Notes: generated by a model from the letters alone, not told the origin. Shown: positions 11,157 through 16,479, numbered from the stretch's first letter. The stretch is 30,853 nucleotides of DNA from a bacterium (GCA_050239825.1 JBFXGO010000030.1:1-30853), one strand, 5' to 3'. Numbers and translations are program-made.

Positions 11157-12512
11157 ATCTCTAGTCCAATATCACTGGTCACGAGTCAAGAAATGTTGGG
11201 GGCAGTTGAATAGCTTAGCGCTCATTCGCACATCAGCCTTGGGCAGCTATATCATGATGGAGTAGAGTTGGAGTGCTGAAAACAGCAGTCCAACAACTGA
11301 GCTGCCCACATGATGGGCTGCCCCGGCTGACATCCTCATGAGCTTGTAGCTTACACTTTCAATAAGTTATTTAATTGATTGAATCTTCACAAAGCATTGG
11401 CTGGGGTGTAATGTGCGCGAACGCACATGATAGAAGAGAACGGGTTGCACCAGAACTTTGTGAAGATTAATGTAAAGACAAAATCTTACTCAGCAGTGTC
11501 ACCGTGAACGCCTCAATGGTTATGACTATCGTGAAGGGTCTATCAGTTTATTGTTAATTGATTATTGAAGATTGTTTATGGGCTGATGTCGGGCGTAGCG
11601 TCGGCTCGCACACTCCGCTTCGCCGCTTAATCAAGATGGGATAGCGTAGCAAGGGGTCGCCCACTTGATGGGCGTCTGCGCGGAGCGTCCTCGCCGACTT
11701 TAAGCTTTCGAGTATCAATAAGCTATTTAATTGATTGTCCTCATGAGAAGCATTGGACAGACGAGCGCTGTGGACAGGCTTCTCATTCGGAACTGAAAAG
11801 ACAAAATCTTACTCAGCAGTGTCATCCTGAACGCCTCTGTGGTTATGACTATCGTGAAGGGTCTGTCAGTTTATCGTTAATTGATTATTGAAGATTGTTT
11901 ATGGGCTGCACGCGGGCGTTGCGTCGGCTCACACACTCCGCTTCGCCGCTTTATCAAGATGGGATAGCGTAGCAAGGGGAGAACCACTTGATGGGCGTCT
12001 GCGCAGAGCGTCCTCGCCGACTTTAAGCTTTCGAGTATCAATAAGCTATTTAATTGATTGAATCTTCACAAAGCATTGGCTTGGGTGAAATGTGTGCGAA
12101 CGCACATGATAGACGCCTCGGGTTGCACCAGAACTTTGTGAAGATTACTGTAAAGACAAAATCTTACTCAAATCTCCGTATTAAGCTCATGGCACATGGC
12201 TCACGGCTCAAGGCTGATTTATGGGCTGATGGCGGGCGTAGCGTCAGCTCACACACTCCGCTTCGCCGCTTTATCAAGATGGGTTACCGGAGCAAGGGGT
12301 CAACCACTTGATGGGCGTCTTCGCGGAGCGTCCTCGCCGTTCACTTTCAATAAGTTAATTAATTGTGTTGCAGTGGGGACACACCGTAGGAATGTCCCCA
12401 AACATTGAATAGCAGTGCGGAGATGCACTGGAATTTTTCCTCGGAACTGTAAAGGCAAGTTATTTAATCAACTCCCCGTATTGTATTTAAGCTCGCAACC
12501 CGCAACTCGAAA
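11157..12512. repeat. modular structured repeat array 1 (leader-A'-B1-C-A-B2-C-A-B1-D-A-B3'-D')
   Basis: Hairpin A/A' at 11220-11343, 11600-11698, 11923-12021, 12243-12339; hairpin B at 11361-11490, 11717-11813, 12040-12168, 12349-~12468; linkers C and D between; no credible ORF. Confidence 0.9.
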
Positions 12513-12571
12513 TTGCATTATAATATGCAATGTTATTGATAATTGGGGGTTGATTAAGAAACCTGTTCAGT

Positions 12572-13942
12572 TTAAAATTTCTTTGACAAAACGCCGAAGG
12601 TGTGTATTAAAAGAGAGATACCGAGACCGACTATCATCGGTTCGATGTTTGAAAGCGGGTTTTCATAGGGAATTATCTTTCTTATAAATATCCATGAGAT
12701 ACTTGAGAGTGTGCCGAAAATCATCTCAATAATAATCAGGTTTTCGCCTACTCTGAATTTTACAAAGTATGCGCCGATAACAGCAAAGATGAGACCCGGG
12801 ATAGCAACTGAGCCGATTATGTACCATAGGTTTATGACGGAAGGAAAAAGGAACGCGAGAAGGACAGCGATAAGAGATGAGAAGAGCATTCCTATCCTTG
12901 CGAAGAGCTTTTCATTGTAATTATTAATATTCAGTTTTTTCATGAAATCAATCGATAATGTGGTCCCGCTTATGAAGATGAATGAATTGAGAGTTGAGAG
13001 GATTGTGGCGAATATACCAGCATAGAAAAGCCCGAGAAGACCCTTTGGCAGAATAGCAGATGCAAGGTTAAAATATGACCACTGGGGAATGGAGAGAGAT
13101 GGAAATGCCGCTCTTGCATATAGGGCTGTGGAGGTGGTGAGAAAGTCAAAGAGAGCCCAGAGGAGTATGGATAGAATTATTCCGTAAAAAGCTGTCTTCT
13201 CATCCTTGGCAGAGTAGCATCTCTGGTGAAAGCCCGGGTCAACGAATGTCCACAAAGCTATGAGAAACCAGACAAAAATGTAGAGTGGGGGCATGCCTCC
13301 GGTTAGAGTAAGATGAGATGAGGGAAGGTTCTCCTTGAGAAATGTGTAATCCCCCAGCTTAAAAAAAGCAAATACAAATAGAACTGCAAACCCCAGGAAC
13401 ATAAAGAAGAACTGAAAAACATCTGTATAAAGGTCGGCTTTAAAACCGCCCTTAAAGACGAAGGGAAGTACGAATAGAAGGGAAATGAGCATGGAAGATA
13501 AAAGGTTGAAGGAAAAGAGCTTTGATAGAATTACTCCGGACATAAGTATGTAGGGAGCCGGGGAAGCAAGTATGAATACAATCAAGGCAGATACCATAGA
13601 GGCCCTTTTTCCGTAAATCTGCTCTATTCTTTCCGGAATGGTGAAGAGGGAAGCCTTTCTCACTTTTTTAGCAAAAAAGATAGCAAATAAAAGAGCAAAA
13701 ACATAATAGGGGAATCCCTGAGTGAACCAGTTTACCAGACCGTACTGATATGTGAACTCTCCGACTCCTAAGATGCCTCCATACCAAGTGGATACATTTG
13801 TAGCTATGAAAAGAAAGAGGCCTGTCTTTCTGTTGTTGATGAGAAAATCATTATTTCCGCTCTTTCCCCTGGATGCGAAATAACCGGTAAGTCCGAGGAG
13901 AACGAAGAATGAAAGAATGACTGCTAAATCTGCATTAGTCAT
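12572..13942 (-). CDS. sodium:solute symporter family protein
   Basis: About 13 TM segments, STWYGGILGVGE, GGFKADLYTD.FQ, DPGFHQR, FATILSTLNS; start moved to ATG 13942 because a TGnTATAAT -10 box lies within the longer ORF. Confidence 0.9.
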   Translation of the reverse strand: MTNADLAVILSFFVLLGLTGYFASRGKSGNNDFLINNRKTGLFLFIATNVSTWYGGILGVGEFTYQYGLVNWFTQGFPYYVFALLFAIFFAKKVRKASLFTIPERIEQIYGKRASMVSALIVFILASPAPYILMSGVILSKLFSFNLLSSMLISLLFVLPFVFKGGFKADLYTDVFQFFFMFLGFAVLFVFAFFKLGDYTFLKENLPSSHLTLTGGMPPLYIFVWFLIALWTFVDPGFHQRCYSAKDEKTAFYGIILSILLWALFDFLTTSTALYARAAFPSLSIPQWSYFNLASAILPKGLLGLFYAGIFATILSTLNSFIFISGTTLSIDFMKKLNINNYNEKLFARIGMLFSSLIAVLLAFLFPSVINLWYIIGSVAIPGLIFAVIGAYFVKFRVGENLIIIEMIFGTLSSISWIFIRKIIPYENPLSNIEPMIVGLGISLLIHTFGVLSKKF

Positions 13943-13948
13943 ATTGTC

Positions 13949-13976
13949 ATTATAGCAAAACAATGTTCTTAATCAA
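13949..13976 (-). promoter_or_regulatory. sigma70 promoter for the symporter, probably leaderless
   Basis: Minus strand TTGATT-16 bp-TATAAT with extended TG, 6 nt before ATG 13942. Confidence 0.6.
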
Positions 13977-13988
13977 TAAGCAAAACCT

Positions 13989-15156
13989 ATCTCTAGTCCA
14001 ATATCACCAGTCACGAGTCAAGAAATGTTGGGGGCAGTTGAATAGCTTAGCGCTCATTCGCACATCAGCCTTGGGCAGCTATATCATGATGGAGTAGAGT
14101 TGGAGTGCTGAAAACAGCAGTCCAACAACTGAGCTGCCCACATGATGGGCTGCCCCGGCTGACATCCTCATGAGCTTGTAGCTTTCACTTTCAATAAGCT
14201 ATTTAATTGGTTGAATCTTCACAAAGCATTGGCTGGAGTGTAATGTGCGCGAACGCACATGATAGACGCCTCGGGTTGCACCAGAACTTTGTGAAGATTA
14301 CTGTAAAGACAAAATCTTACTCAGCAGTGTCACCCTGAACGCCTCAATGGTTATGACTATCGTGAAGGGTCTATCAGTTTATCGTTAATTGATTATTGAA
14401 GATTGTTTATGGGCTGATGGCGGGCGTAGCGTCGGCTCACACACTCCGCTTCGCCGCTTTGTCTCGGCAGACCTCGACGGGCGTCTGCGCGGAGCGTCCT
14501 CGCCGACTTGAAGCTTTCACTTTCAATAAGAATTGATTTGCTTGTCCTCGGAAAAACATTGAATAGCAGTGCGGAGATGCACTGGAATTTTTCCTCGGAG
14601 TTGTAAAGGCAAGTTATTTACTCATCTCCCCGTATTAAGCTCATGGCGCATGGCTCACGGCTCAGGGCTGATTTTATGGGCTGCATGCAGGTGTAGCGTC
14701 GGCTCGCACACTCCGCTGCGCCGCTCTATTTTTAGGGACGGTGGTTGCAAAAAGCTGCATTTTTTGAATCGTTAAAATTATGAGTTGCTGATCAAGAAAT
14801 GTTTGCTGGCTGCACGTTGGTGTAGCGTCGGCTCGCACACTCCGCTTCGCCGCTTTATCAAGATGGGATAGCGGAGCAAGGGGACAACCACTTGATGGGC
14901 GTCTGCGCGGAGCGTCCTCGCCGACTTGTAGCTTTCGTGTATCAATAAGTTAATTATTTGATTAAATCTTCACAAAGCATTGGCTGGGGAGAAATGTGCG
15001 CGAACGCACATGATAGAGGTATCGGGTTGCACCAGAACTTTGTGAAGATTGCTGTAAAGACAAAATCTTAATCAAATCTCCGTATTAAGCTCAAGGCACA
15101 TGGCTCACGGCTCAAGGCTGACTTGGGGCGGCTGAATAGCATAGCATTCATTTGCA
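13989..15156. repeat. modular structured repeat array 2 (leader-A'-B1-C-A(short)-B3-D-A(truncated)-A-B1-D-A'(truncated))
   Basis: A' 14052-14175, B1 14193-14321, A 14431-14507, B3 14525-14622, truncated A from 14698, A 14827-14925, B1 14944-15072, D 15089-15120; the first ~470 bp nearly identical to 11157-11628. Confidence 0.9.
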
Positions 15157-15207: not shown

Positions 15208-16479
15208 ATGAAAAATATTTACAGAATTATCGTTGCTGTAACAATTGTTTTTGTAGCACTTTATTTTTCATTTTATACGGAAAGAGCCGGCGGCTACCTG
15301 TCTACACTGATTTTCTTCGCGCTTTCATCAACGGCTGTGATGGTAAAAAAGGATATTGATTTATCAATGCTCTGGGTGAGTCTGCCTGCTTCAATTTTGG
15401 TAACGGCATTTATTTTTAAGACGCACCTGTATCCAGAGATAATGATATTGGCTATGAACAGGCTTTATCTTGTAATTCTCTCTTTTATACCGTTTAAGAA
15501 AACAAAGGAGATAAGGATTATCTCTCTCATATACTGCAATCTAATCGTATTCCTTGTTTTGATTGAGCTTCTCCTTAACCTGATTTTCATGATTTATCCG
15601 TTTGAAGTTTTAAAGAGAAAAACCGACATATTCAGACTCGCTCCTTCAACGACTTTTAATAATTCGCCTGTGAATGAAGACGGATACATGGGAAGAAGAG
15701 TATCCGATGAAAAAAAAGAGAGAAGAATTCTTTTCATAGGAGATTCATTCGGAGTGGGTGTAGTTGATTACAAGCATAATTTCATACAGATGATTGACGA
15801 CTCAACTGAATATGAATGCATCAACCTTTCACAGCCGGGATATTCGCCGGTTGATTATCTGAGAGAACTCAAAACCAATTTTGATAAAGCCTGTCCAGAC
15901 CTTGTTATCATAATTATCTTTGCCGGGAATGACATTCTAAATATAGCTGTCGGGGAAAACAATTGGTCTATAGATAATTTTAAATCAATCAATCTGATAA
16001 GAAATGCAGATGTTTTCCTTAAAGAGAGAAAGAGAATAAAGAAAGAAACTGAAAGCTTTTCAATGACGAGAGAAACCTTTCTTGAAGTCGAGAAAAGAAG
16101 AATGAAAGTTAATGAAAAAGATTCTCTTAAAAGAGAGTGGAGTCTTTTTGAGAAGACAATTGATGAGATGAAAGTGTTTCTTGACGGTAAAAACAGAAGG
16201 TATTTATTTTTGATAATTCCGGATGAATTTTCGATTAATGAGAATCTGCAGAGAGATTTGGGAAAAGATGATTCCGTTGACTGGCTTTACTCTGTCAAAA
16301 GAATCGCAGATTTGCTTGACGAAAGAGGAATTGAACACATCAATTCAACGAAATCACTCCAAGAAGCCTTTAAAGCAGGCGTCAATCCATACAGAGAGAA
16401 TGATACGCATGTGAATGAATATGGAAATTACATTTTATTCAATGAATTAAAAAAGTATATTGACTTTACAGAAAGATGA
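15208..16479 (+). CDS. membrane-anchored SGNH/GDSL-like hydrolase (AlgX/AlgJ-like)
   Basis: N-terminal TM helices, block I ILFIGDSF, block III FAGND, block V NDTHVNEYG. Confidence 0.75.
   Translation: MKNIYRIIVAVTIVFVALYFSFYTERAGGYLSTLIFFALSSTAVMVKKDIDLSMLWVSLPASILVTAFIFKTHLYPEIMILAMNRLYLVILSFIPFKKTKEIRIISLIYCNLIVFLVLIELLLNLIFMIYPFEVLKRKTDIFRLAPSTTFNNSPVNEDGYMGRRVSDEKKERRILFIGDSFGVGVVDYKHNFIQMIDDSTEYECINLSQPGYSPVDYLRELKTNFDKACPDLVIIIIFAGNDILNIAVGENNWSIDNFKSINLIRNADVFLKERKRIKKETESFSMTRETFLEVEKRRMKVNEKDSLKREWSLFEKTIDEMKVFLDGKNRRYLFLIIPDEFSINENLQRDLGKDDSVDWLYSVKRIADLLDERGIEHINSTKSLQEAFKAGVNPYRENDTHVNEYGNYILFNELKKYIDFTER

Follow-up and report, generated by a model that had tools for sequence, protein, structure and literature searches.

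The window analysed here is a whole contig of 30,853 bases (C54 of a 67-contig, 2.1-Mb assembly) from an uncultured WOR-3 bacterium, and it carries arrays of an intergenic mosaic repeat whose core module is a long hairpin. This hairpin occurs in two types, A and A', in which the stems are almost wholly different and the internal loop and flanks almost the same. A reading of the window made from its sequence only had inferred that selection acts on the fold and on the internal loop. This core inference holds, since the stem pairs are compensated and loop entropy is low: the covariation is genuine, and fold and loop are both kept. Our tentative explanation is that A and A' are subfamilies of the core hairpin of a genus-specific mosaic repeat, read as a folded single strand by a protein for the spread or upkeep of the repeat. 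The family itself is best read as a relative of the repetitive extragenic palindromes (REPs) and bacterial interspersed mosaic elements (BIMEs).

Hairpins A and A' in the window

The hairpins of the window and their flanks are as follows.

11220-11343, plus strand: hairpin A', copy 1 (107.4 bits with the covariance model); stem 1 11220-11225/11338-11343, 5' loop TCGCACA 11226-11232, stem 2 11233-11238/11325-11330, 3' loop CATCCTC 11331-11337
14052-14175, plus strand: hairpin A', copy 2, identical to copy 1 (108.4 bits)
11600-11698, plus strand: hairpin A, copy 1 (132.6 bits); stem 1 11600-11605/11693-11698, 5' loop TCGCACA 11606-11612, stem 2 11613-11618/11680-11685, 3' loop CGTCCTC 11686-11692
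11923-12021, plus strand: hairpin A, copy 2, with 5' loop TCACACA and stem 2 CTCCGC/GCAGAG (one C-A on the plus strand, G-U on the minus strand)
12243-12339, plus strand: hairpin A, copy 3, with stem 1 GTCAGC/GCCGTT; the outer stem is without its last two 3' letters and the usual 3' flank is absent
14827-14925, plus strand: hairpin A, copy 4 (136.3 bits, the top match to the covariance model)
14431-14507, plus strand: short-apex version of A, with stems 1-3 and loops as in A (106.9 bits)
14695-14728, plus strand: orphan 5' half of A, GCGTCGGCTCGCACACTCCGCTGCGCCGCTCTAT, joined to module GGGACGGTGGTTGCAAAAAGCTGCATTTTTT, with no 3' half
11216-11219, plus strand: 5' tag TAGC, directly before stem 1 of A' copy 1
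11596-11599, 11919-11922, 12239-12242, 14048-14051, 14427-14430 and 14823-14826, plus strand: further TAGC tags
11344-11352, plus strand: 3' flank TTGTAGCTT, general form TTNNRGCTT

All the stem arms that the sequence-only reading had listed were found where it had placed them, both for A' (GCTCAT/ATGAGC, TCAGCC/GGCTGA, GGGCAGC/GCTGCCC and ATCATG/CATGAT) and for A (GTCGGC/GCCGAC, CTCCGC/GCGGAG and ATCAAG/CTTGAT). The short-apex copy and the orphan 5' half were missing from its list. The retention of loops and flanks in both types was likewise borne out: A and A' have in common the tag TAGC, the loops TCRCACA and CRTCCTC, the words TT, GATGG and GATGGGC, and the tail TTGTAGCTT. Between the two types, stems 1 and 2 are changed at 20 of their 24 letters, all still paired, whereas the loops and TAGC are changed at one of their 18 (Fisher p 7e-7). 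In the short-apex copy the apex is GTCTCGGCAGACCTCGAC, a tandem T-C/C-T on the plus strand that reads G-A/A-G on the minus strand.

Minimum-energy folding gave the long stem-loop for both types and on both strands. The values were -65.8 (plus) and -67.2 (minus) kcal/mol for A' (z -5.7 and -7.2), and -44.1 (plus) and -49.0 (minus) kcal/mol for A at 11595-11705 (z -1.4 and -3.4). The same four helices were recovered by RNAalifold from a MAFFT alignment of 13 copies, which was not fitted to any structure, with 29 pairs on the plus strand (15 compensated) and 28 on the minus strand (14 compensated).

Throughout the genome, the stem is preceded by NTAGC in 101 of 106 copies (GTAGC in 69, ATAGC in 23, TTAGC in 9), and copies in relatives also carry CCAGC and ACAGC at this place. 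The 3' flank reads TTGTAGCTT in 53 of 106. Between its GCT and the AGC of the tag, pairs can form around a 5-base bulge, and RNAalifold predicts a three-pair basal helix there. These pairs never vary, therefore covariation lends the basal helix no support.

Covariation of the stems and conservation of the loops

Covariation was assayed on 46 covariance-model matches, forming 44 distinct rows from three genomes of one genus. Changes on both sides were seen in 21 of 24 pairs. Paired cells made up 85.8%, compared with 65.8% in shuffles, and none of 500 shuffles reached the observed value, with the caveats that the alignment was fitted to the model and that the rows are kin, so that the shuffle statistics overstate independence. 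In slid controls, where the partner was moved by 1-3 columns, 22-58% of cells paired. Six truncated or weak rows were then removed for the entropy measurement; in the remaining 38, the two loops had mean column entropies of 0.26 and 0.24 bit, and the four half-stems values of 0.90-1.39 bit. Together, covariation and entropy support selection on the fold and the internal loop. What is kept while the stem letters turn over is the pairing of the four helices, the 7-by-7 loop (TCRCACA/CRTCCTC on the plus strand) and the short flanks.

Only two sets of stems occur in this genome (G000). At least seven further versions of stem 2 come from two congeners, which brings stem 2 to at least nine versions within one genus.

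Stem 2: CTCCGC/GCGGAG, CTTTGC/GCAAAG, GCATGC/GCCTGC, CTGCTT/AAGCAG, CTGCTC/GAACAG, TCAGCC/GGCTGA, TCATCC/GGATGA, TCATCA/TGATGA, TCAGGT/ACCTGA
Stem 1: GTCGGC/GCCGAC, GCCGGC/GCCGGC, GCTCAT/ATGAGC, GCTCAT/ATTCGC, GTTCAT/ATTCAC

Copy number and distribution

The genome was scanned for the two loop words flanked by complementary 6-base words, ignoring stem letters. This gave 124 candidate loop pairs, 114 of them with at least 5/6 pairs in both stems. The final set, with a loop spacing of up to 130 bases and 4/6 pairs allowed in stem 1, contains 107 hairpins in 45 arrays, all outside long open reading frames (ORFs). Hairpin length is 77, 99, 114 or 124-141 bases. Ninety copies are canonical (99 bases), eight have a longer apex, five a short apex, and four are of type A': the two in the window and those at C60:3781-3905 and C66:7901-8041. 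Each hairpin is the core module of a mosaic unit of about 320 bases (hairpin A, linker, hairpin B, module C), and the units lie head to tail in intergenic arrays, with one direction for all copies of an array. The 90 canonical copies combine the alleles of about 10 biallelic sites into more than 40 apex haplotypes, and apex modules are exchanged between copies, indicating that recombination among copies is frequent.

The family is restricted to one genus. It was found by BLAST in 3 of 61 related genomes, all of that genus, and a covariance model built from 13 copies matched 3 of 151 genomes of the phylum, again of the same genus only. A stem-blind pattern in which the tag, the two loops and TT were fixed was also run against genome_contigs (185,579 species, own genome excluded) and returned 27 matches in 26 stretches. 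Eight are true members from three assemblies: four in an assembly matching the congener G002, one in a WOR-3 assembly matching G001, and three on one contig of an assembly labelled Vulcanibacillus. The other 19 are chance matches, none of which has at least 5/6 pairs in both stems. Thus, nothing was found outside the genus in the 151-genome covariance search or the genome_contigs scan, apart from the contig of the Vulcanibacillus-labelled assembly. In that 2.8-Mb assembly, matches are confined to a single contig of 30,039 bases (C28), except a weak one on C1 (72% over 127 bases). C28 is probably a misplaced contig of a WOR-3 relative in the wrong bin. It includes an A' with perfect stems identical to those of the window.

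Proposed explanation and relation to REP sequences

The mechanism that we infer is one in which a protein reads the folded single strand, most likely so that the repeat can propagate itself. The protein would recognize the strand, DNA or RNA, by its shape and by a few loop and flank bases, and this recognition would serve the spread or upkeep of the repeat and not a host gene product. The stems would need only to pair, leaving their letters free to covary, while the loop and the tag would be frozen as protein contacts. The folding strand would more likely be the minus strand, on which the loop could close into a tandem G-A/A-G, G-C, G-G and three pairs. Such a logic would be that of REP sequences with their RAYT (REP-associated tyrosine transposase)/TnpA-REP nucleases, and of IS200/IS605 ends. 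Since the mosaic repeat to which the hairpin belongs is high-copy and genus-restricted, the hairpin is at least as likely to serve propagation of the repeat itself as to have a host RNA function.

REP palindromes are described in PMC8266576 as 20-50 bases long. The same source states that E. coli TnpA-REP acts on single-stranded REP and not on its complement, and that it requires GTAG and an unpaired bulge, whereas the upper stem and loop can be replaced by their complement. PMC3733652 describes REP families with GTAG or CGTC tags, often in pairs of opposite orientation and mostly downstream of genes. The present family resembles the REP/BIME-RAYT system in being made of high-copy intergenic hairpins, lying in arrays between long ORFs. 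It may also have a counterpart of the REP tag in the short sequence that immediately precedes the stem on its 5' side, which is GTAGC in 69 of 106 copies. The stem is broken by an obligatory unpaired zone, and its letters can change as long as they pair. Several subfamilies coexist in one genome, and RAYT-like genes are present in it. The two systems differ in that the unpaired zone is here a sequence-conserved 7-by-7 loop, as opposed to a 2-base bulge in REPs, and in that the better-folding strand is opposite to the GTAG-first strand. Moreover, CGTC lies here within the 3' loop and not at the hairpin end, and no RAYT-like gene is flanked by the hairpin (no REPtron).

Candidate partner proteins are encoded in the genome. 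Four genes, on C14 (within 62615-65953), C5, C56 and C18, are paralogues tightly packed between housekeeping genes and encode Y1-HUH proteins of 259-301 residues that contain HxH and a YxHxNP-like tyrosine motif. In NCBIfam, each of the four matches REP-associated tyrosine transposase best, with scores of 56.6-73 bits (cut-off 80), and all four exceed the Pfam Y1_Tnp cut-off. A C-terminal helix-turn-helix is present in the C14 and C5 proteins; Pfam finds none in the other two. A phmmer comparison of two of these proteins with solved structures (E up to 0.01) gave no relative. The four proteins are candidates only. Matches number 6 and 8 in the congeners and 0-13 in other genera of the family.

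The strand that folds

The sequence-only reading had pointed to the minus strand, on which the internal loop reads GAGGA/UGYGA with potential sheared G-A pairs. This view gains support from the mismatches and from the fold energies. In the 38 rows, the non-wobble mismatch cells on the plus strand were C-T (65), T-C (30), T-T (5) and C-C (2), with no purine-purine cell. All 102 are therefore pyrimidine-pyrimidine on the plus strand and purine-purine on the minus strand. A-C cells, which are G-U on the minus strand, outnumbered G-T cells (22 versus 11); in this genome alone, a manual tally found A-C in about 17 copies and G-T in about 15, with no strand preferred. Of the 107 copies, 97 folded more stably on the minus strand under RNA parameters (mean difference -3.6 kcal/mol) and 81 under DNA parameters. 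A set of 34 distinct versions, relatives included, was left once duplicates, rows containing N and seven rows that were weak or truncated had been removed; for it, the corresponding figures were 32 (mean -6.5) and 26.

In the RNAalifold model, the minus-strand internal loop largely closes, through a tandem G-A/A-G, a variable pair, G-G, A-U, C-G or U-G, and G-U. The variable position is G-C in 6, G-U in 6 and A-U in 1 of 13 rows. The 5'-GA/3'-AG tandem also occurs on the minus strand in the short apex and in stem 1 of the A'-like copies of relatives. Altogether, the folded strand is more likely minus than plus. The GTAG-like tag stands 5' of the stem on the plus strand only.

These observations might also be expected of a structured RNA made from the minus strand, in which arrays would be transcribed antisense to the prevailing genes and the tandem G-A loop would bind or titrate an RNA-binding protein. 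Such an RNA is possible, but we think it rather unlikely. It would agree with the greater stability of the minus strand under RNA parameters, with minus folds that beat shuffles (z -3.4, -3.2, -2.4 and -7.2) where plus folds of A fail to do so (z -1.4, -0.8 and -0.3), with loop variants that keep their pair, and with the recurrence of the tandem in three places. However, a search of both strands gave no sigma-70-like promoter inside the arrays. For 80% of the coding length the minus strand is the antisense strand, and in 34 of 40 arrays it runs head-on to replication. Even with E up to 1, the arrays matched no Rfam family; the only hit, snoR113 (E 0.33), falls within the sodium:solute symporter gene. 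Finally, G-A and G-T pairs stabilise DNA hairpins too, and DNA parameters also favour the minus strand. The protein-read repeat proposed above needs a folded single strand that may be either DNA or RNA.

Array direction and transcription signals

With repeats masked, 34 of 40 arrays pointed the way given by the sign of the GC skew (p 8e-6), the plus form lying on the G-rich strand. Array direction also followed the local gene majority, in 35 of 44 arrays. Third-codon-position skew was +0.054 in majority-strand genes and -0.044 in minority-strand genes, and the GC skew has a replication-linked component. This component and the 34 of 40 arrays together place the plus form on the lagging-strand template. 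The lagging-strand template is the target reported for IS608 and ISDra2 in PMC6006769.

The agreement with gene direction could also mean that the plus strand acts in cis as RNA, arrays being co-transcribed with their neighbours and the hairpins serving as mRNA stabilisers, RNase barriers or terminators, roles that have been reported for REPs that are transcribed. We consider this unlikely. Array 1 of the window does start 16 bases past the stop codon of the upstream EamA transporter gene, and module B3 forms a terminator-like hairpin with a T run on the plus strand (12413-12430 and 14567-14584); PMC3733652 likewise places many REPs downstream of genes, where they are plausibly transcribed. 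On the other hand, the fold of A on the plus strand is no better than shuffles and its mismatches are all pyrimidine-pyrimidine, and a generic stabiliser has no need of a frozen 14-base loop sequence. Furthermore, a 650-base array on C25 sits past the terminator of the upstream gene and ahead of the promoter of the next, at a site where G002 has about 58 bases. This comparison shows gain or loss of an array at a transcriptionally quiet position. A second possible empty site, that of an array on C3, was unusable because G002 carries unrelated DNA with a small gene there.

Truncated copies

Incomplete hairpins are one-sided. A scan with a loose seed gave 308 orphan hits, mostly chance, and the counts of 5' halves given here come from a stricter rescan that required proper upstream context. 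This rescan gave 31 orphan 5' halves, of which 27 belong to type A and 4 to type A'. Seven of them stop exactly after TCRCACA and two stop two bases earlier; five run on for up to three more bases before they meet the C module or unique DNA, and in the others the junction is with another module, at one of a few recurrent points. An internal orphan 3' half was not found in the genome, the only two with family context both being at contig ends. Array starts and ends are heterogeneous, the stop after TCRCACA being the sole recurrent end.

The internal loop could be a nicking or cleavage site at the TCRCACA edge, in addition to a binding site, and rolling-circle-like copying from the nick would make head-to-tail arrays. 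The cutter would be an HUH-type enzyme or an unrecognised self-cleaving RNA, and the minus-strand cut would fall just before TGTGYGA. This would explain 5' halves that end at that base, the lack of orphan 3' halves and a direction that follows the replication fork; if true, it would be an undescribed amplification route for a bacterial satellite-like repeat. We regard it as improbable. Several TCRCACA ends are followed by A-rich GTAAAAG-type repeats, with a T-rich mirror further on or across the array, so that part of these ends may go back to a single ancient junction and not to repeated cutting.

The A-rich repeats (GTAAAAG/GTGAAAA) and their T-rich mirror (CTTTTAC) bracket arrays or trail an orphan 5' half of A, for example at L079:1300-1345 and 1895-1925 (C25), L076:1686-1800 (C3) and L050:1117-1380 (G002). 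They may be a separate AT-rich inverted-repeat element or the outer ends of a composite. Another module, GGGACGGTGGTTGCAAAAAGCTGCATTTTTT (14731-14790 in the window; C14:11140-11230 and others), consists of a small hairpin followed by a T run and often starts an array. It also stands behind 5' halves of A cut at CGCCGCTT or TTTAT, and on C14 the pair formed by an A 5' half and this module is repeated in tandem.

That the hairpins have no present function, A and A' being two old palindrome-born lineages whose loops and flanks gene conversion from shared neighbour modules keeps alike, is very improbable: recombination is indeed rampant, swapped modules and recombinant junctions are observed and A' stands in the same unit context as A, but conversion tracts would have to skip four 6-base stem segments yet cover the intervening 7-base loops, further compensated changes occurred inside lineages (TCAGCC/GGCTGA to TCATCC/GGATGA to TCATCA/TGATGA; CTCCGC/GCGGAG to CTTTGC/GCAAAG), and the A hairpin is 84% identical between G000 and G002 versus about 75% for flanking genes at the DNA level.

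Weighing the proposed explanation

Several results weigh against a REP-like hairpin read by a protein. The hairpin measures 77-141 bases, compared with 20-50 for REPs, and its copies lie head to tail in 320-base units, not as REP/iREP inverted pairs. No A-type hairpin was found within 1.5 kb of any RAYT-like gene (covariance model, best E 1.6), and RAYT-like genes are present in 10 of 11 same-family genomes without the repeat, so there is no specific co-occurrence of the two. The heterogeneity of array ends means that no discrete transposon with fixed ends is defined. The kinship of the aligned rows, already mentioned, tempers the covariation statistics. Finally, the strands conflict: the GTAG-first geometry and the lagging-strand-template position favour plus, whereas fold energies and mismatch types favour minus. 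A simple REP analogy does not explain this conflict.

Other known systems were also compared. As in IS200/IS605 elements, with their subterminal hairpins, and in PATEs, which are non-autonomous derivatives of them, there are imperfect hairpins read (here by proposal) as single-stranded DNA and no terminal inverted repeats, and as in IS200/IS605 the orientation is tied to replication, here through the GC skew. In contrast to IS200/IS605, the repeat has no defined left and right ends with fixed cleavage sites, no short TnpA gene and no TnpB (no TnpB gene was found in the genome), and it forms arrays of many units instead of single insertions. Integron attC sites share long imperfect hairpins with structure kept above sequence, folded single strands and an arrangement in arrays. 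They differ in their RYYYAAC/GTTRRRY core sites, absent from the feet of the present hairpins, whose flanks read TAGC and TTNNRGCTT; the 'cassettes' are here conserved non-coding modules; and no integron integrase was found above cut-off in the genome, the best TIGR02249 match scoring 94.7 bits against 265. The missing R''/R' core sites and integrase rule out an attC identity.

K-turns and their relatives have a likeness in the 5'-C-GA-G/3'-G-AG-Y predicted on the minus strand beside a G-C-rich helix, with possible sheared G-A pairs. The symmetric 7-by-7 loop, without a 3-base bulge, rules out that the loop is a K-turn. A known Rfam RNA was excluded as well, as no curated model, self-cleaving ribozymes included, matched at gathering score anywhere in the window. 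As for NIME/Correia, ERIC/IRU and BOX elements, we take them to be similar in their modular build, hairpin modules, intergenic position and restriction to lineages; we know of no sequence relation of the present repeat to any of them. The present analysis adds to the picture of the family the stem versions of the congeners, loops that are frozen relative to stems, a strand asymmetry, a tie of array direction to replication and truncation on one side only.

Arrays, neighbouring genes and B hairpins

The two arrays of the window fill gene-free stretches on either side of the sodium:solute symporter gene.

11157-12540, plus strand: repeat array 1, between the EamA stop (11141) and the symporter 3' end (12572), from repeat families D1-D8, per-base copy depth and gene families; module order leader L, A', linker, B1, C1, A, linker, B2, C1, A, linker, B1, C2, A, B3, end module
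12572-13963, minus strand: sodium:solute symporter gene, from gene family search
13989-15146, plus strand: repeat array 2, between the symporter start (13963) and a gene starting at 15208
11380-11470: hairpin B1
11735-11795: hairpin B2
12365-12450 and 14535-14600: hairpin B3 (G002 copy at L050:3071-3144)

The neighbour upstream is the EamA transporter gene, and that downstream is an AlgX-like gene. The symporter gene is served by a near-consensus promoter at 13976-13949. Array 2 is really two arrays that abut at about 14730. Modules of both arrays recur 50-125 times in the genome, as judged by per-base copy depth, and the G+C content of the arrays is 0.47-0.49, compared with about 0.38-0.42 in the surroundings.

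About 470 bases stand in direct repeat on either side of the symporter gene (11157-11628 and 13989-14459). They comprise L, A', linker, B1, C1 and the start of A, and are 97-98% identical, where typical copies are 81-93% identical. This closeness points to gene conversion at the site or to a duplication in which the gene was enclosed. The orthologous spacers on the two sides of the symporter gene are alike in G002 too, with a content different from that of the window.

The B hairpins follow the pattern of A and A', with wholly different stems, a conserved CATTGR after the 5' arm and TGTAAAGRCAA after the 3' arm. The B3 copy of G002 has yet another arm pair, CAGACTCAAAAA/TTTTTGAGTCTG. The arms of B2 (11737-11749 and 11783-11795) contain 8-10-base words of the A' arms (11218-11232 and 11331-11343) in swapped order: its 5' arm TCCTCATGAG matches the 3' side of A', and its 3' arm CTCATTCG the 5' side. 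These words make it look as if B2 arose where two A' copies were joined.

A 1.57-kb repeat seen in the self-comparison of the genome was rejected as an insertion sequence, being a gene for a repeat-rich protein. This protein of 725 residues (C17:7700-11500), with many near-identical units of about 40 residues (GLQIIDISNPSSPTL...), underlies the repeat on five contigs.

Significance

To our knowledge, the phylum of the host has no cultured member. The family offers a clean natural experiment, in which the stems of a hairpin about three times as long as a REP were rewritten at least nine times in one genus. A 14-base internal loop and two short flanks stayed fixed throughout, and this constrains the features that a partner protein has to read. 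Together with the variants of stem and apex, A and A' form a natural mutant series for binding or cleavage assays with the four RAYT-like proteins. The strand bias, the better folding of the opposite strand and the one-sided truncation lie outside the REP model and could mean a different route of propagation.

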